From Clostridia bacterium (GTDB lineage: Bacteria; Bacillota; Clostridia; UMGS1883; UMGS1540), in assembly GCA_045535515.1 (NCBI GenBank), contig JAZSLT010000016.1:83802-147801 (forward strand): a stretch of DNA of 64,000 bases, written 5' to 3'. The first letter of the stretch is position 1, and each line of letters starts with the position of its first letter. The translations under genes and the position numbers were made by a program. The notes under the pieces are model-generated. The model worked only from the letters and a program-made list of their open reading frames with translations. It was not told where the DNA came from and made no database searches. Shown one piece after another: positions 3,740 through 64,000 of this stretch.

Positions 3740-4633
3740 TTACTCTTTGTCACTAAAGCCGAGATTTTTCAGCATAAAGTTACTGTTTCGCCAATCGTCC
3801 TTTACTTTTACAAAAAGCTGCAGATATATTTTCTTTCCGAAAAAGGCTTCCGCCTCTTCTCGCGCCGCCGTACCCACGCGTTTGAGCATGGCACCGCCGC
3901 GTCCGATGATAATCGATTTATGGGAGGCTTTTTCACACACAATGTCCGCCGTAATGCGGCAGATTTTCGCCTCATCCTTCATTTCCATAATTTCCACAGC
4001 CGTTCCGTGCGGAATTTCCTGGTCGAGATAGGAGAGAAGCTTTTCGCGGATAAACTCCGCCATAATTTCGCGTTCCGTTTTATCGGTAATCATGTCCTCG
4101 GGATAATACATCGGCCCTTCTGTCAGAAATTTCTGTAGCTCCTCCTGCAAAATTTCCACACCGTCGCCAGTTTTGGCAGAAATGGGAACGATGGCGGAAA
4201 AATCAAATTTTTCCGAGAAGGCGGCAATCTGGGGAAGCAGTGCCTCGCGGCCCATACGGTCAATTTTATTCAGGGCCAGCACCGCCGGAATTTTTTTCGC
4301 CGTAAGCTCTGCAATAATGCGCTCCTCCGGCGCACCGAAGCCGCGGGTGGCATCGGCCATAAGAAGAGCCGCATCCACCGATTCAATGGCACCGATGGCG
4401 GCGTGGTTCATGTAATCGCCAAGGCGCGTTTTGCTCCGGTGCACACCGGGCGTGTCCACAAACACCATCTGGTAGTTTTCGTCATTTACAATACCTAAAA
4501 TTTGATTTCGCGTTGTCTGGGGTTTGGCGGTCGTAATCGCAATTTTAGCGCCCACCAGACGATTTAAAATAGTAGATTTTCCCGCATTCGGGCGGCCGAC
4601 AATCGCAATAAAACCGGATTTGAAGTTTTCCAA
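3740..4633 (-). CDS. era: GTPase Era
   Basis: G1 motif GRPNAGKST, DTPG, NKID, and a C-terminal KH domain. The likely start is TTG at 4633, with AGGAAGGG 6-7 nt upstream and just after the rodA stop; the track ORF extends in frame to 4789. Confidence 0.8.
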   Translation of the reverse strand: MENFKSGFIAIVGRPNAGKSTILNRLVGAKIAITTAKPQTTRNQILGIVNDENYQMVFVDTPGVHRSKTRLGDYMNHAAIGAIESVDAALLMADATRGFGAPEERIIAELTAKKIPAVLALNKIDRMGREALLPQIAAFSEKFDFSAIVPISAKTGDGVEILQEELQKFLTEGPMYYPEDMITDKTEREIMAEFIREKLLSYLDQEIPHGTAVEIMEMKDEAKICRITADIVCEKASHKSIIIGRGGAMLKRVGTAAREEAEAFFGKKIYLQLFVKVKDDWRNSNFMLKNLGFSDKE

Positions 4634-4653
4634 AACAGTACCCTTCCTATTCT

Positions 4654-5763
4654 TTAAAATTGTATTCGTTTCCGTCGCATATGCACACTTAGCGCAAGGG
4701 AAAGTGCGAGAAGACTGGCAACCATATTTGAGCCGCCATAGCTGACAAAGGGAAGCGGTATGCCGGTAACCGGCAAAAGGCCAAGACACATGCCGATACT
4801 CTCAAACACATGCGCCATCAGCATAAAGCCGACACCGGCCGCGAGCAGTTCGCCAAAGCCATCCCGCGCCTGGGAGGCGATGACAAAGCAGCGCACAATC
4901 AGGATGAGGAGAACGGCAAGGAGCAAAATAGAGCCCCACATACCCATTTCCTCGCCAATCACCGCAAAAATAAAGTCCGTTTGTTTTTCGGGAAGATACC
5001 CATGCTGCGTCTGGATGCCTTGCCCGATGCCGCGCCCCAAAACGCCGCCGGCCCCGATGGCAATTTTCGATTGCATCACATGATAGCCGGCTCCGAGGGG
5101 GTCCATCTCCGGATTAAAAAAGGTGAGAATACGGTTTTTCTGGAAATCCTCTAAAAGGAAGAACCAGGCGAGAGGCGCTGCGGCCGCAAACAGACCGCCG
5201 GCGGCGGCAAAGTATTTAAGGCTCAGGCCTCCTACATATAAAACGCCGAGAAAGATAAAAACAAACACAAGCGCCGTTCCCACATCCGGCTGCAGAAGAA
5301 TAAGACCAATTAAAAGACCGGCGTGCAGACACAAAAGAAGCAATACGGAGGGGCGGTTTATATCCTCGCGTACAGCGTCTACATGCTTGGCGAAGGAAAG
5401 AATAAAGCCGATTTTGGCAAGCTCCGACGGCTGAATACCAACGGGACCGAGGCGAATCCAGCCCTTTGTGCCCACTTCCTCGCCGCCTGTGCCGATAAAC
5501 AACACAACCAGAAGAAAAAGCGCACTTAAAATATAAATGTATACACTAAGCTGCCCCCAGAAATCGTAGTCCACTCGCGTTATGAGGATAAGCAAAACGG
5601 CACCCAGCAAAAACGCGCCCAGCTGCACCACAACATAACGGGAAGACCCGAGGCTCTGTGCGGAGCTTGCGATGGCAACCAGACCTATAATAAAGGCCAG
5701 CGAAGCACAGATTAAAAGCCAGGGGTCAAGCGAGGAGAAAAAACGGTTTTTCCTTTTCACCAA
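4654..5763 (-). CDS. rodA: SEDS-family peptidoglycan glycosyltransferase (RodA/FtsW)
   Basis: 369 aa polytopic protein; the C-terminal region GIPLPFVSYGGSNMVASLLALSL is typical of FtsW/RodA. Confidence 0.8.
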   Translation of the reverse strand: MVKRKNRFFSSLDPWLLICASLAFIIGLVAIASSAQSLGSSRYVVVQLGAFLLGAVLLILITRVDYDFWGQLSVYIYILSALFLLVVLFIGTGGEEVGTKGWIRLGPVGIQPSELAKIGFILSFAKHVDAVREDINRPSVLLLLCLHAGLLIGLILLQPDVGTALVFVFIFLGVLYVGGLSLKYFAAAGGLFAAAAPLAWFFLLEDFQKNRILTFFNPEMDPLGAGYHVMQSKIAIGAGGVLGRGIGQGIQTQHGYLPEKQTDFIFAVIGEEMGMWGSILLLAVLLILIVRCFVIASQARDGFGELLAAGVGFMLMAHVFESIGMCLGLLPVTGIPLPFVSYGGSNMVASLLALSLALSVHMRRKRIQF

Positions 5764-5775
5764 ACTAACACCACC

Positions 5776-6567
5776 TTATTTTACAAGAGGACAAAGGTCA
5801 GCCTCCGTAATTTCCAGAAGGTCCGCCAGCGTGGAAAGACGGAGAAGCCGGTCCTCATAAAGTGCAGGGTCGTGACAATCGGAGCCGAAAATAAATTTAC
5901 AGCCACATTCCTTAGCCGTTTCGTACACGCGGAACATTTCGCTCCGGTGCATGGCCTTTACGGGATACGAGAGGAAAGCGGAAGCGTTGATTTCCAGCGC
6001 GATGTTGTGATATACGGCATCGGAGAACAAATCCTCCAGCCGGTCATCGGAAATACGGAACAGCACCTCGTCAAAGTTATCGGGATTGCCGTAGGGATAA
6101 AAGGGATGGGCAATCGCAGTAATATATTTCGAAAGCGGATTTTCTACCAGCATGGAAAAACGCTCACACAAAACATCTGCCAGCTTTTTCACATCACGGC
6201 GGATAGCTTCGGGAATAACGGCATCGTGCTGCGAGTGGGAATGTACCGCCAGTACATAGTCAAGCTTTCCGGCGGCTTCCTCGGAAAGACCGAGAATACC
6301 GTTTTTGTCCATCTCCGCCTCACAGCCGCGGAGAACGCGGATGCCCTTCTCCTTCGGCAGCGGCTCCGACAAAATATGCGCCATATCCTGCCCTTTGTAA
6401 AAATCATTAATGGCAGGGGATACGGCGGTGTCCCAGACATGGTTTGAAAAGCCTATGGTTTTAAGGCCCTTTTCCTTTGCAATTTCAATATAAGCCTCGG
6501 GTGTGGCAAGGGGACTGCCACAGCGGGAGAGAGAAGTGTGCATGTGCAGGTCGTGTTGTATATTCAA
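5776..6567 (-). CDS. PHP-domain metal-dependent phosphoesterase
   Basis: 263 aa; N-terminal HMHTSLS... His motif and later HSH/H..D motifs typical of PHP/histidinol-phosphatase-like proteins. Confidence 0.6.
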   Translation of the reverse strand: MNIQHDLHMHTSLSRCGSPLATPEAYIEIAKEKGLKTIGFSNHVWDTAVSPAINDFYKGQDMAHILSEPLPKEKGIRVLRGCEAEMDKNGILGLSEEAAGKLDYVLAVHSHSQHDAVIPEAIRRDVKKLADVLCERFSMLVENPLSKYITAIAHPFYPYGNPDNFDEVLFRISDDRLEDLFSDAVYHNIALEINASAFLSYPVKAMHRSEMFRVYETAKECGCKFIFGSDCHDPALYEDRLLRLSTLADLLEITEADLCPLVK

Positions 6568-60266: not shown

Positions 60267-62171
60267 ATGGAAAAGAAACCGTTTACGCCGTATATTCCGG
60301 CCGAAAAAATCACACCGGAAACTACGGTAACCTCTATCATCATGGGTATTATTCTGGCGGTTGTATTCGGTGCCGCGAACGCCTACTTAGGCCTTCGCGT
60401 GGGGATGACCGTTTCCGCATCCATACCGGCGGCCGTTATCGCGATGGGTGTTATCCGTGTTCTGATGCGGAAGAACTCTATTTTGGAGAGCAATCTGGTG
60501 CAGACCATCGGCTCCGCCGGTGAATCCCTTGCGGCCGGTGCTATCTTTACGCTGCCGGCGCTCTTTTTGTGGGCGGCCGAGGGCAAGACTGCGAACCCCG
60601 GGATTTTGGAAATCACCATTATCGCCCTTATCGGTGGTCTTTTAGGCGTATTTTTCATGGTACCCCTCAGAAACGCCCTCATCGTAAAAGAACATGGCAT
60701 CCTGCCGTACCCCGAAGGGACGGCGTGTGCCGAGGTGCTTTTGGCCGGCGAAAAAGGCGGCGCGAACGCCTCCACCGTATTTGCCGGTATGGGCTTTGCC
60801 GCTCTTTTCAAGTTTATTATTGACGGTCTTCGTCTCGTAGCCGGTGAAATTTCCGTTACCATAAAAGGCTTTGCCGGCACAATCGGAACACAGATTTATC
60901 CGGCCGTTATGAGCGTTGGCTATATCTGCGGCGCGAAGATTTCTTCGTATATGTTCGCCGGCGGCCTTTTCAGCTGGCTGGTGCTTATCCCGATGATTGT
61001 GTTGTTTGGCGAAAACATCATTCTGTATCCCGGCACAACCACCATCGGGGAGATGTACGCTGCAGGCGGAGCCGGTACTATCTGGGGAACTTATATACGG
61101 TATATCGGCGCCGGTGCCCTGGCGGCCGGTGGTATTATCAGCCTTATAAAATCCCTGCCGCTGATTATCAAAACCTTTGCCGGCGCTATCCAGAGCGTGG
61201 CGGGCGGACGGGAAAAGACAACGGCGCGCACCGAAACGGATATCAGCCTTAAGGTGGTGCTTGGTGCCATTATTCTCCTTACCCTTTTGGTGTGGCTGGT
61301 GCCGGCAATCCCCGTAAATCCCTTGGGTGCCTGTGTGGTTGTGGTTTTTGGTTTCTTTTTTGCCACCGTATCCTCGCGTATGGTCGGTCTTGTAGGCAGC
61401 AGCAATAACCCTGTATCCGGCATGGCGATTGCCACGCTCCTGATTGCCACCCTTCTTCTGAAGTTTACAGGCAGTACAGGCATAGCCGGCATGACAAGCG
61501 CGATTGCCATCGGCTCCATTATCTGTATTGTTTCGGCTATTGCCGGTGATACCTCGCAGGACCTTAAAACGGGCTACCTTTTAGGCGCTACGCCGAAAAA
61601 GCAGCAGATAGGGGAAATCCTCGGCGTTATCGCCGCGGCGCTTGCTATTGGCGGCACCTTGTATCTTCTCGATAGTGCTTGGGGCTTTGGAACAGACGAA
61701 CTGGCGGCACCGCAGGCGATGCTGATGAAACTGATTATCGAAGGCGTTATGGAAGGAAACCTCCCGTGGACGCTGGTGCTGATTGGCGTATGTATTGCCA
61801 TCGCCGTAGAAGTGGTCGGTATTCCGGTTCTGCCCTTTGCGATTGGTGTGTATCTGCCTGTACAGCTCAACGCCTGCATTATGGTAGGAGGACTTGTGCG
61901 TCTCGGCATAGAGAAATCAAAGAAGAGCGCAGAAGAAAAGGAAAAAGCATTAAACCGCGGAACGCTCTTTTGTTCCGGTATGATTGCCGGTGAAGGCCTT
62001 GTGGGTATTGCGCTGGCGCTCCTTGCCGTAGTCGGCGTAGATAAAATGCTCGATTTATCGGCGAAGTTGGCTATTCCGACGGCAGTATCCGAAATTGGCG
62101 GTCTTCTCCTGTTTGCCGTTATTATTCTGACCGTTTTGAAATTCTCCCTGCAAAAGAAAAGAGAGAAATAA
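60267..62171 (+). CDS. OPT-family oligopeptide transporter
   Basis: At least 14 TM helices; the N-terminal region has typical OPT-family features; start uncertain (60201, 60237 or 60267). Confidence 0.75.
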   Translation: MEKKPFTPYIPAEKITPETTVTSIIMGIILAVVFGAANAYLGLRVGMTVSASIPAAVIAMGVIRVLMRKNSILESNLVQTIGSAGESLAAGAIFTLPALFLWAAEGKTANPGILEITIIALIGGLLGVFFMVPLRNALIVKEHGILPYPEGTACAEVLLAGEKGGANASTVFAGMGFAALFKFIIDGLRLVAGEISVTIKGFAGTIGTQIYPAVMSVGYICGAKISSYMFAGGLFSWLVLIPMIVLFGENIILYPGTTTIGEMYAAGGAGTIWGTYIRYIGAGALAAGGIISLIKSLPLIIKTFAGAIQSVAGGREKTTARTETDISLKVVLGAIILLTLLVWLVPAIPVNPLGACVVVVFGFFFATVSSRMVGLVGSSNNPVSGMAIATLLIATLLLKFTGSTGIAGMTSAIAIGSIICIVSAIAGDTSQDLKTGYLLGATPKKQQIGEILGVIAAALAIGGTLYLLDSAWGFGTDELAAPQAMLMKLIIEGVMEGNLPWTLVLIGVCIAIAVEVVGIPVLPFAIGVYLPVQLNACIMVGGLVRLGIEKSKKSAEEKEKALNRGTLFCSGMIAGEGLVGIALALLAVVGVDKMLDLSAKLAIPTAVSEIGGLLLFAVIILTVLKFSLQKKREK

Positions 62172-62506
62172 TGAAAAAAGCAGAAAATTATCTGGAAAGA
62201 AAACCGATGCCCGCAAAAACGATTTCCTGGAAGGTAGAGGAAGAAAAGGTCACCATATCAGTAGAAAATCGCGGCATGTGGAACAGAATTTTGCAAAAAC
62301 TCCTCGCGAGGCCGAAGATAAGCTACATTCATCTGGATACATTCGGCAGCTTCGTTTTCCGGGAGATGGACGGCGAGAAAACGATTTTAGAGATTGGAGA
62401 AAGGGTGGAAGCCGTTTTCGGGGAAGAGGCCAATCCGCTGTATGAAAGACTGGCCACCTTTTGCGCAAGACTGGAAAGCTATGGGTTTATTTCTTTCACC
62501 GACTAA
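62171..62506 (+). CDS. PqqD-family (RRE-like) small protein
   Basis: 111 aa; ...FVFREMDGEKTILEIGERVEAVFG...YERLATFCARLESYGFISF matches the PqqD pattern; its start overlaps the OPT stop (TAATG). Confidence 0.6.
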   Translation: MKKAENYLERKPMPAKTISWKVEEEKVTISVENRGMWNRILQKLLARPKISYIHLDTFGSFVFREMDGEKTILEIGERVEAVFGEEANPLYERLATFCARLESYGFISFTD

Positions 62507-62519
62507 TAAGAATTTCGGA

Positions 62520-62556
62520 GTCTGTAAAGGGAAACTTTACAGACCCTTTCTTTTTT
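62520..62556 (+). terminator. rho-independent terminator
   Basis: GTCTGTAAAG-ggaa-ACTTTACAGAC followed by CCTTTCTTTTTT. Confidence 0.65.
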
Positions 62557-62557
62557 G

Positions 62558-62583
62558 ACCCTATAACTTTATTTTCTGTGGAA
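62558..62583 (+). repeat. left 26-bp terminal inverted repeat
   Basis: See the cassette entry. Confidence 0.6.
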
Positions 62584-62704
62584 CGGACTTTTCGCCCTAA
62601 TCTCAAAGAGATTTTGAAGTTATATGTAATTAATTACAAAAAGTTGATTGTGTTGACTAAAACCATTAAAAATGATAATATAAATTGCAAGAAAGCACTA
62701 TCAA

Positions 62705-62735
62705 GAGCCTCCCTTGTGTAAAGGGAGGTGGGCTC
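62705..62735 (+). repeat. hairpin (CCTCCCTT-GTGTA-AAGGGAGG); inverted copy of the terminator hairpin at 63130-63158
   Basis: The two 19-mers CTCCCTTGTGTAAAGGGAG and CTCCCTTTACACAAGGGAG are exact reverse complements and flank the DUF559 CDS. Confidence 0.5.
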
Positions 62736-62758
62736 TAAAGCAACTCGGAGGGATTGTA

Positions 62759-63127
62759 ATGGATTATAAACACAATAAAGGAATTGTACCACTTGCAAAA
62801 GCACTACGAAAAAATATGACAAAAGAAGAAAAGCACCTTTGGTATGACTACTTAAGACAATACCCTATTAGGTTTATAAGACAGAAAGTTATAGGAAAAT
62901 ATATTGTTGATTTTTACTGTGCCAAAGCAAAGCTTGTTATCGAATTAGATGGCTCACAACATTATGATAATAAAGAAATGGAAAAGGATGCTTTGAGAAC
63001 AGAGTTTTTAGAACAATATGGATTAAAAGTTATAAGAATATCAAATCTTGATATAAGTAAAAACTTCGAGGGAGTATGTATATTTATTGATAATGAAGTC
63101 AAGCAATCCCTCAGTCAACTTCGTTGA
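62759..63127 (+). CDS. DUF559 endonuclease-domain protein (Vsr/REase-like fold)
   Basis: 122 aa from MDYKHNKG...; YIVDFYCAKAKLVIELDGSQH is characteristic of DUF559; RBS GGAGGG; low GC. Confidence 0.65.
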   Translation: MDYKHNKGIVPLAKALRKNMTKEEKHLWYDYLRQYPIRFIRQKVIGKYIVDFYCAKAKLVIELDGSQHYDNKEMEKDALRTEFLEQYGLKVIRISNLDISKNFEGVCIFIDNEVKQSLSQLR

Positions 63128-63129
63128 CA

Positions 63130-63158
63130 GCTCCCTTTACACAAGGGAGCCTTTTTTA
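63130..63158 (+). terminator. rho-independent terminator (inverted copy of the 62705 hairpin)
   Basis: GCTCCCTT-TACAC-AAGGGAGC followed by CTTTTTT. Confidence 0.65.
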
Positions 63159-63434
63159 TAAGTGTCATTTATAAGTGTCGGAAAATTGCGGAAGATTCTC
63201 CAACCGCACTTTTTTATTGATTTTACCCCCTAAAAAGCATAGTTTTTTAGAAAAATTAATAAGCAAATATATAAAAGTGTTGTTTTTTTCCTTCTTCGGG
63301 GATATCCACCAGAAGGAGATAACCCGAGCAGGGCACTTTGCTGCAAATGCAGTAAACCCATTGACGGAACACAAGATAAATGTTATACTATATATAGAAA
63401 ATATTTCAAATATTATATAAAGTGGAGTAAATAT

Positions 63435-63839
63435 ATGAAGATAGAATATAAAAATATTCATAATTTTAATTGTAGTGAATTGGAGAGATTATTTCTCTCT
63501 GTTGAGTGGTCTTCAGGTCATTTCCCCGAAAAACTTGTTGTTGCAATGAAAAACTTTAATACAGTTTATTCTGCTTGGGACGGGGATAAATTAGTGGGAA
63601 TGATATGTGTTATGGATGACGGGATAATGAATGCTTATGTTCATTATCTACTTGTTGACCCTGAATATCATAAGAAAACTATTGGCAGAACATTGGTTGA
63701 TATGGTAAAGCAAAAGTATAAAGAATATATGCGTATCATAGTGATTGCTTATGATAGTGAGCAACATTTCTATAATGCTTGTGGATTTGAAAAAAGTAAT
63801 CAATCTTCACCAATGTTTATAACAACCTTGTGGACATAA
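63435..63839 (+). CDS. GNAT-family N-acetyltransferase
   Basis: 134 aa; acetyl-CoA motif VDPEYHKKTIGRTLV; low GC. Confidence 0.7.
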   Translation: MKIEYKNIHNFNCSELERLFLSVEWSSGHFPEKLVVAMKNFNTVYSAWDGDKLVGMICVMDDGIMNAYVHYLLVDPEYHKKTIGRTLVDMVKQKYKEYMRIIVIAYDSEQHFYNACGFEKSNQSSPMFITTLWT

Positions 63840-63857
63840 CCCTATAAGTTATTGTAA

Positions 63858-63890
63858 AAGGATAAAGTTAAGTGCTTTATCCTTTTTTAT
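63858..63890 (+). terminator. rho-independent terminator
   Basis: AAGGATAAAG-ttaagtg-CTTTATCCTT followed by TTTT. Confidence 0.65.
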
Positions 63891-63942
63891 TTTGCAGAAT
63901 ACAAAAGTGCTATTTTTATGCGAAATCTCAACAAAAAAATTA

Positions 63943-63968
63943 TTCCACAGAAAATAAAGTTATAGGGT
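63943..63968 (-). repeat. right 26-bp terminal inverted repeat
   Basis: Exact reverse complement of 62558-62583. Confidence 0.6.
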
Positions 63969-64000
63969 TTTGACAGGGAAATTGACGAGACGGGATTTTT

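Follow-up and report, generated by a model that had tools for sequence, protein, structure and literature searches.

A non-autonomous cassette probably derived from a passenger-carrying IS1595-family transposon of gut Clostridia, with a nested DUF559 hairpin-repeat unit

The window analysed here, a stretch of 64,000 nucleotides from contig JAZSLT010000016.1 of a Clostridia bacterium (assembly GCA_045535515.1), carries close to its right edge a low-GC cassette of 1407 bp (62560-63966) with two genes, one for a DUF559 protein and one for a GNAT acetyltransferase. Very probably this cassette goes back to an IS1595-family transposon of uncultured gut Clostridia that carries passengers; lacking a transposase, it is non-autonomous and would count for ISfinder as a mobile insertion cassette (MIC) derived from a 'transporter IS' (insertion sequence). 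It was inserted with an 8-bp duplication directly after the terminator of the OPT/PqqD operon, leaving 7 bp between the duplication and the -35 hexamer of the host promoter that follows. All positions are those of the window unless another locus is named.

Ends, target duplications and autonomous relatives

The first-pass annotation of this stretch, made from the sequence alone, had described a perfect 26-nt inverted repeat around a segment of low GC placed right after the OPT/PqqD operon terminator, and all of this was borne out. The repeat consists of ACCCTATAACTTTATTTTCTGTGGAA (62558-62583) and, as its exact reverse complement, 63943-63968; at up to 3 mismatches the 64 kb contain no other copy (chance expectation 0). 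The GC fraction drops from ~0.50 to ~0.30 at ~62550, by the left repeat, and an element of ~30% GC in a host region of ~50% GC fits a cassette derived from a transposon.

Comparison with relatives places the termini at CCTATAAC...GTTATAGG, which assigns the AC and GT at the outer edges of the 26-mer to an 8-bp target duplication. The end alignment therefore resolves the 26-mer into a terminal repeat of 24 nt plus two duplication bases that happen to be complementary; the terminal inverted repeats are perfect over these 24 nt and imperfect from there to ~44 nt, and the terminal repeat sequence of the family is CCTATAACTNNATTTTCTGTG. The window repeat is perfect over 24 nt because its left end reads TT at 62569-62570, where every other left end reads CG. 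This TT could reflect end conversion, or an element formed from two right-type ends.

An exact scan of 185,579 species genomes with the inner (right-end) 25-mer returned 13 loci, all in uncultured Clostridia, with one copy per genome and each beside different host genes (e.g. rpsF, lepA, secDF or a ZTP riboswitch). At all 13 loci the block matching the right repeat of the window extends to ~55 nt, and an identical right end of 24-25 nt is found in these 13 species genomes as well as at loci L014, L019, L246 and L247. Twelve complete elements share both ends and lie at unrelated loci. Their target duplication is perfect (8/8) at L003, L005, L009, L011, L014, L019, L021, L246 and L247, matches at 7 of 8 positions in the window and at L010, and is lacking at L001. 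The first-pass annotation had suggested a search for target-site duplications, for an IS family with matching ends and for further copies of the repeat, and each of these was found: the 7/8 duplication around the window element, an IS1595-type transposase between the same ends in relatives, and the right-end 25-mer at unrelated loci in the 13 species genomes. Its proposal that repeats present once per genome would make mobility less likely proved misleading, since mobility is shown by insertion sites and duplications that differ across species despite the single copies.

BLAST of the cassette against these loci gives a block structure, in which the left arm (62560-62618) and the spacer (63160-63403) are always present, the right end is conserved, the DUF559 module occurs in some copies only and the middle gene is unlike in every copy. 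The left arm is 88-90% identical at L001, L005, L010, L011 and L246. The spacer is 76-86% identical at L001, L010, L012, L014 and L019, and in autonomous copies it follows directly on the transposase stop. Loci L003 and L009 are deletion forms, which keep a transposase-type left arm and have lost the gene. Taken by type, fresh duplications at different loci flank six copies of the DUF559 type and two of the deletion type.

The autonomous copies hold a long gene in the slot that is occupied by DUF559 in the window. At L019 an intact transposase open reading frame (ORF) of 546 aa stands between the same ends, followed by the spacer and a 160-aa passenger, and the duplication is perfect; L021 has an intact transposase of 552 aa (60% identical) in a 6-kb element with four passengers. 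L014/L015 represent a 3.9-kb element with a perfect duplication and three same-frame ORFs split by two TGA codons, and L012 has a long ORF in this slot, cut by the contig end, whose fragment gave no Pfam hit. About 100 homologues of the transposase were found in a database search, many of them intact at 539-586 aa.

For the family model test, the L014 transposase was used with its two stops repaired (544 aa). It passes the IS1595 model NF033547 only just (75.9 bits against a cutoff of 75, E 4e-21) and scores 28.5 bits against a cutoff of 28 with NF050000, the model of the IS1/IS1595 Zn domain; a PF12762 match is precomputed for homologue P0009. Annotated IS1595 transposases are ~25% identical (tblastn, E 2e-17). 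Among 19 transposase homologues, C68, C71, C91 and C94 are invariant and D176, D266, D/N and K+7 are conserved. In IS1595, target duplications are usually of 8 bp and the transposase combines a Zn finger at its N-terminus with a DDE domain at its C-terminus (PMC8101967); the parent element shows the Zn domain, the match to a DDE-type model and 8-bp duplications together with terminal inverted repeats.

The gene at L014 is 96-99% conserved apart from its in-frame TGA codons (5383-5385 and 5983-5985 of that locus). Decay was preferred to recoding or an alternative genetic code, which were considered and rejected: L012 has Arg at the second TGA site, the gene is uninterrupted at L019 and L020, and at L018 it is frameshifted. 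The autonomous copies appear to be decaying. Between the left terminal repeat and the transposase promoter, L014 also has about a dozen TTTTATAA(A) boxes at ~20-nt spacing (4580-4850 of that locus). This array, which recurs in the left arms of L019, L021, L003 and L009 and is absent from the DUF559 lineage, may be where the transposase or a host factor binds.

In the cassette of the window the sole ORFs are those of DUF559 and GNAT, and tblastn with the family transposase was negative in the window, as expected from the earlier statement that no transposase is present. Given this lack of a transposase homologue and of any other end copy in the window, the cassette is taken to be a non-autonomous derivative. 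The suggestion of a non-autonomous IS-derived cassette is supported by the same ends and 8-bp duplications at unrelated loci in other species and by the autonomous IS1595-type relatives. The label MITE-like (miniature inverted-repeat transposable element), offered along with it, does not fit an element of 1407 bp with two expressed-looking genes and one copy per window and per genome.

The parent element consists of a left repeat, a left arm with promoter, a transposase of ~546 aa, a spacer with an internal promoter, at least one variable passenger with its own terminator, and a right repeat. In the lineage of the window, the transposase gene and its leader have been swapped, exactly from leader to terminator, for the nested motif-DUF559-motif unit. 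Insertion presumably proceeds by DDE-type cut- or copy-and-paste transposition, catalysed in trans by the transposase of an autonomous relative that would recognise the shared ends. We infer mobilisation in trans from these shared ends and from the fresh duplications at different sites.

Several observations weigh against this derivation. Only one exact right-end copy was seen per species genome scanned, these being metagenome-assembled genomes, so that co-residence with an autonomous copy lacks support, and mobilisation of the cassette in trans is itself a deduction. The duplication is imperfect (7/8) in the window and missing at L001. Neither a transposase homologue nor a further copy of the terminal repeat lies in the 64-kb window. 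On the repaired L014 protein the Pfam IS1595 models stay below threshold and the NCBIfam score is barely at its cutoff. Finally, the empty site, whose junction is predicted to read ...CAGACCCTTTC(T/G)TTTTGACAGGGAAATTGACG, i.e. ...CCCTTTC(T/G)TTTTGACAGGGAAATTGACG, was not recovered: the query CCCTTTCNTTTTGACAGGGAAATTGACG had zero matches in metagenome contigs and no insertion-free strain was seen there, so that the first-pass suggestion of a search for empty sites came back negative for this locus. The terminal repeat had zero matches in viral contigs and the cassette DNA zero matches among plasmids; exact-sequence look-ups of the PqqD-like, GNAT and DUF559 proteins of the window found none on record.

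The internal organisation follows that of the autonomous copies. Over ~130 nt the left arm is homologous between the transposase and DUF559 lineages, including the first of the two promoter-like sites of the element (62653-62681); in the window this promoter, which serves the transposase in autonomous copies, is predicted to transcribe DUF559. The second site (63361-63389) faces the passenger, and its pattern TTGAC(G/T)-17-TATA(C/A)T is conserved in the window and at L012, L014 and L019. The GNAT gene, for which a promoter and terminator of its own had been correctly proposed, stands in a variable cargo slot: every relative has another gene there, each with its own terminator at the passenger 3' end, and the cargo of the family includes acetyltransferases, small membrane proteins, an amidase and an oxidoreductase. 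Judged from the sequence, GNAT is cargo that would be read from the conserved internal promoter of the element.

In the spacer, at 63155-63300, two of the three AAGTGTYGG copies lie within a tandem TTTATAAGTGTC repeat, and a GGATATCC-centred palindrome stands upstream of the passenger promoter; both features are conserved across elements. A structured RNA at 63156-63403 was considered and rejected, as Rfam had no match for the spacer or the cassette and the features fit a terminator, short repeated motifs and a promoter better. A direct partial copy of the left terminus, ACCCTATAAGTT, starts on the third base of the GNAT stop (63839-63850) and occurs with this cargo only. A 10-mer that matches just as well is found inside the DUF559 coding sequence in all copies, so this match is weak and may be due to chance or be a relic of cargo capture.

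Table 1 Features of the cassette and its flanks, in window positions
Feature	Position	Strand	Basis and remarks
PqqD-like ORF	62171-62506		PF05402; OPT transporter gene also upstream
Intrinsic terminator of the host OPT/PqqD-like operon	62520-62551	+	Stem 62520-62544 and T-run; host DNA left of the insertion
Left target-site duplication TTTTTGAC	62552-62559	.	7/8 match to right copy
Left terminal inverted repeat	62560-62603	+	Perfect 62560-62583, imperfect to ~44 nt; end alignment, 9 complete elements
Conserved left arm with promoter (TTGACT 62653, TAATAT 62681)	62604-62702	+	Autonomous copies have a homologous arm before their transposase gene
Hairpin-repeat motif, subtype 1 (hairpin 1, hairpin 2, GGAGGGATTG)	62703-62758	+	Covariance model R1, 59 bits, E 9e-22; family alignment A1
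DUF559 gene, 122 aa	62759-63127	+	PF04480 E 9e-31; PDB 3hrl E 9e-11
Hairpin-repeat motif, subtype 2, inverted	63102-63155	-	R1, 71 bits, E 9e-27
Conserved transposon spacer	63156-63403	+	Three AAGTGTYGG, terminator-like hairpin, GGATATCC palindrome, promoter TTGACG 63361 / TATACT 63389
GNAT acetyltransferase, 134 aa, passenger	63435-63839	+	PF13673, PF13508, PF00583
Cargo-specific intrinsic terminator	63856-63886	+	
Conserved right end with right terminal inverted repeat	63912-63966	-	Perfect 63943-63966, imperfect to ~44 nt
Right target-site duplication GTTTTGAC	63967-63974	.	
Host -35-like hexamer TTGACG	63982-63987	+	15 nt past right terminus; would serve a gene beyond the window

The nested DUF559 unit and its hairpin repeat

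The DUF559 protein is a full-length match to its family (PF04480 over profile positions 6-105 of 109) and by match (PF04480, PDB 3hrl) a Vsr-like protein of the PD-(D/E)xK nuclease fold. Its gene lies between hairpins at 62708-62728 and 63130-63150 that share a 19-nt core, CTCCCTTGTGTAAAGGGAG, in inverted orientation, and their closing pairs are unlike, C-G in one and G-C in the other. The first-pass annotation had recognised this arrangement, with one hairpin in the 5' untranslated region (UTR) of the gene and the other, now also called as a terminator, at its end.

This core forms hairpin 1 of a longer motif (57 nt), which continues with a hairpin 2 of variable sequence and (C/T)GGAGGGATTG. 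The two copies flanking DUF559 are 54-56 nt long and are the only ones found in the window by a covariance model. The subtype-1 copy constitutes the DUF559 5' UTR and contains the ribosome-binding site of the gene at its end, and the subtype-2 copy overlaps the last DUF559 codons (QSLSQLR*), its + strand serving as the DUF559 terminator. In hairpin 2, compensatory changes occur in all seven pairs, none of 500 shuffles reaches this covariation and slid controls collapse. Rfam gave no relevant hit for 15 loci with well-formed copies of the motif.

The 19-nt core was found in at least 120 metagenome loci and 90 viral contigs, and some contigs carry 3-7 copies of the motif. In the fetched loci (1.7 Mb) its doublets are mainly convergent, with 47 convergent pairs (subtype 1/subtype 2, gap up to 100 nt) against 5 divergent ones, and a small class of doublets with a gap of ~345 nt holds DUF559. 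The gene is flanked by inverted motif copies in the window, at L055 (62% identical DUF559, same architecture), at L241 and in transposon-borne copies. At L241 and L244, where DUF559 is 72% identical and the context is another one, similarity to the window is confined to 62693-63154, i.e. to motif-DUF559-motif, and the transposon ends are absent. Near-identical phage contigs differ by single motif copies, one of which is a 60-nt insertion flanked by a duplicated GAGCC (5 bp). From this presence and absence among phages, the doublets and the edges of similarity at L241 and L244, the motif is concluded to be recently mobile or recombinogenic and motif-DUF559-motif to be a discrete unit.

The same observations would be expected if the DUF559 unit were an active selfish element, in which the nuclease recognises or cleaves the motif and homing or transposition then carries the unit, or the doublets, to new sites, with the 26-mers at the ends being incidental; that the Vsr/DUF559 clade contains a homing endonuclease (PMC3424549) also speaks for this. 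We consider this explanation rather improbable. It leaves the outer terminal repeats, the 8-bp duplications and the variable cargo unexplained, all of which are accounted for by an IS1595-type transposon, and DUF559 nuclease activity and a cleavage site are putative only. Moreover, the gene accompanies only 12 of 240 exact-core motif copies among the matches listed; for the other 228, among them every one of the 105 from the 90 viral contigs, the fetched locus lacks DUF559. P0210 and P0223, DUF559 proteins that recur identically across samples, come from a single locus each and were therefore rejected as evidence for multiple insertion sites. The selfish element is compatible with a transposon-derived cassette as far as the nested unit is concerned, and fails for the cassette as a whole. 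The first-pass annotation had raised it as an alternative, a selfish DUF559 gene with palindromic hairpins; of this, the discrete nested module, which also exists outside the transposon, and the independent mobility of the flanking motif stand, while a role of the nuclease in mobility is unsupported.

A few further DUF559 loci differ in arrangement. At L233 (3344-3640 of that locus; likewise at L235 and L237) a 74% identical DUF559 follows an addA-like helicase gene; three further same-strand motif copies lie in tandem downstream, and no upstream copy was detected. Many homologues of 72-93% identity come from contigs of only ~500-700 nt, which is typically how repeated units look when they break assemblies. 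An action of DUF559 on the motif may be hypothesized from their association and from the fold family, to which Vsr and a homing endonuclease also belong (PMC3424549). In the literature covered, which is incomplete, DUF559 was nowhere reported to be connected with repeats.

Target choice near promoters and the origin of the terminal repeats

Insertion loci were collected by the terminal repeat alone, for which reason their flanks are unbiased, and comprise 19 independent insertions. A -35-like hexamer, defined as a match to TTGACA in at least 4 of 6 positions, begins exactly 15 nt from the terminus (8-bp duplication plus 7 nt) in 13 of the 19, with nine perfect hexamers; it lies at 16 nt in two insertions and at 13 nt in one, and is weak or unclear in three. 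A -10 box usually stands 17 nt further on, and no other -35 offset is enriched. For the hexamer of the window (Table 1) the matching -10 box would fall past the window edge. In the close family the targeted promoter lies off the right end, and at L021 off the left end. L247 was used as an out-of-sample prediction, in which both ends and a perfect duplication were confirmed and the predicted -35 hexamer beyond the right end was absent; off the left end, a promoter at this spacing is present but weak. Promoter spacing is therefore a strong rule, though neither absolute nor strictly oriented. No report of IS targeting next to -35 hexamers was found in the literature, again with incomplete coverage. 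Two riboswitches occur close to elements, a ZTP riboswitch directly downstream of the targeted promoter at L010 (524-604 of that locus) and a lysine riboswitch near the element at L003 (2357-2536 of that locus).

Since the right copy of the repeat stands directly upstream of a promoter in most genomes, a regulatory role in the host is another reading, with the repeat as, for example, a duplicated operator or an UP-like element of the downstream promoter. This is very unlikely: the downstream genes are unrelated, the block is always accompanied by the left arm and spacer at variable distance, the duplications match the far left flank, and the promoter of L021 and L247 is found at the opposite end. 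The idea of a regulatory block ahead of host promoters was accordingly rejected for the right repeat once the left ends and duplications had been found.

Two other explanations of the ends have hardly any weight left. Perfect inverted repeats flanking a segment beside a promoter would also be a feature of an invertible DNA switch, in which an invertase flips the 1.36-kb segment between them; however, a recombinase is absent in or beside the segment, all 12 complete elements have the same internal order relative to two distinguishable ends, left and right ends are consistently unlike beyond 24 nt, and the 8-bp direct duplications are not made by inversion. An integron-type cassette captured at attC, or a passenger of a cluster of attC sites lacking integron-integrases (CALIN), as mooted in the first-pass annotation, would agree with a small, variable single-gene cargo with no mobility gene of its own, and is just as improbable given boundaries formed by 44-nt terminal inverted repeats with 8-bp duplications in place of a single 3' attC, a cargo with its own promoter, unlike a promoterless integron ORF, the absence of an integrase and attI from the window region and relatives (no attC covariance model was run), and the DDE transposase of the autonomous relatives.

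Comparison with known systems

For the transposon derivative and its nested unit we tentatively put forward a joint proposal: that DUF559 proteins are nuclease partners of the two-hairpin repeats, and that the IS1595-like clade selects its targets by sigma-70 promoters. If so, DUF559 and the motif would be a PD-(D/E)xK counterpart of RAYT-REPIN, and the unit in the window a partner pair sitting in a transposase slot; promoters could be read by way of the clade-specific C-terminal extension of the transposase or of promoter-bound RNA polymerase. DUF559, a widespread family of unknown function, thereby gains a concrete candidate nucleic-acid partner, a covarying mobile hairpin repeat that is absent from Rfam and abundant in gut bacteria and their phages. 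The clade itself brings single genes with their own promoters to a precise position upstream of host promoters, which is relevant to the spread and expression of accessory genes in the gut microbiome and possibly to a promoter-targeting insertion tool.

I-Bth0305I (PDB 3r3p) is a Vsr-fold homing endonuclease placed in the VSR/DUF559/DUF2726 clade (PMC3424549). It shares its structural clade with DUF559 and sets an example of a free-standing nuclease gene of this fold that is selfish. In contrast, the window DUF559 gave no sequence match to it (only 3hrl was detected) and has no intron or intein context.

The nested unit resembles the REPIN-RAYT system (PMC3116915, PMC3337134) in having one small gene between inverted copies of a palindromic repeat, in the scattering of this repeat chiefly as inverted doublets whose members lie close together, and in hairpins that are conserved with covariation. 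The nested unit differs in that its protein is predicted to be of the PD-(D/E)xK (Vsr-like) type and not an HUH (Y1) tyrosine transposase, in that the motif is abundant in phage contigs, and in that its two ends are distinct subtypes.

Transporter IS of the IS1595 family with passengers go back to Siguier, Gagnevin and Chandler 2009, as cited in PMC3129680. The present clade resembles them in the N-terminal Zn domain, a DDE core at the NCBIfam cutoff, 8-bp duplications, inverted repeats and internal passengers. Its transposase is longer, however, at ~546 aa with an N-terminal extension of ~65 aa and a C-terminal one of ~115-250 aa, compared to ~300 aa in a typical IS1595 transposase. It also shows only ~25% identity to annotated members and has D or N as the third catalytic residue, its termini read CC...GG, and it inserts at a fixed distance from -35 hexamers. 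The copy in the window, in addition, is without a transposase.

The MIC, like the transporter IS, is a recognised category (PMC3129680). The cassette of the window has what characterizes a MIC, namely IS-type ends, a target duplication, genes not involved in transposition, no transposase and a known cognate autonomous element; because this element exists and has matching ends, mobilisation in trans would be expected. MIC231 of Bacillus cereus derives from IS231, a member of the IS4 family. The parent of the window cassette, by comparison, is of IS1595 type and was itself already passenger-carrying, and the transposase slot has been filled by a second, nested unit and not simply emptied by deletion. 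That IS ends can move cargo without a resident transposase is thus a known idea; what is new is an undescribed, cargo-shuttling and promoter-proximal IS1595-like clade in gut Clostridia.

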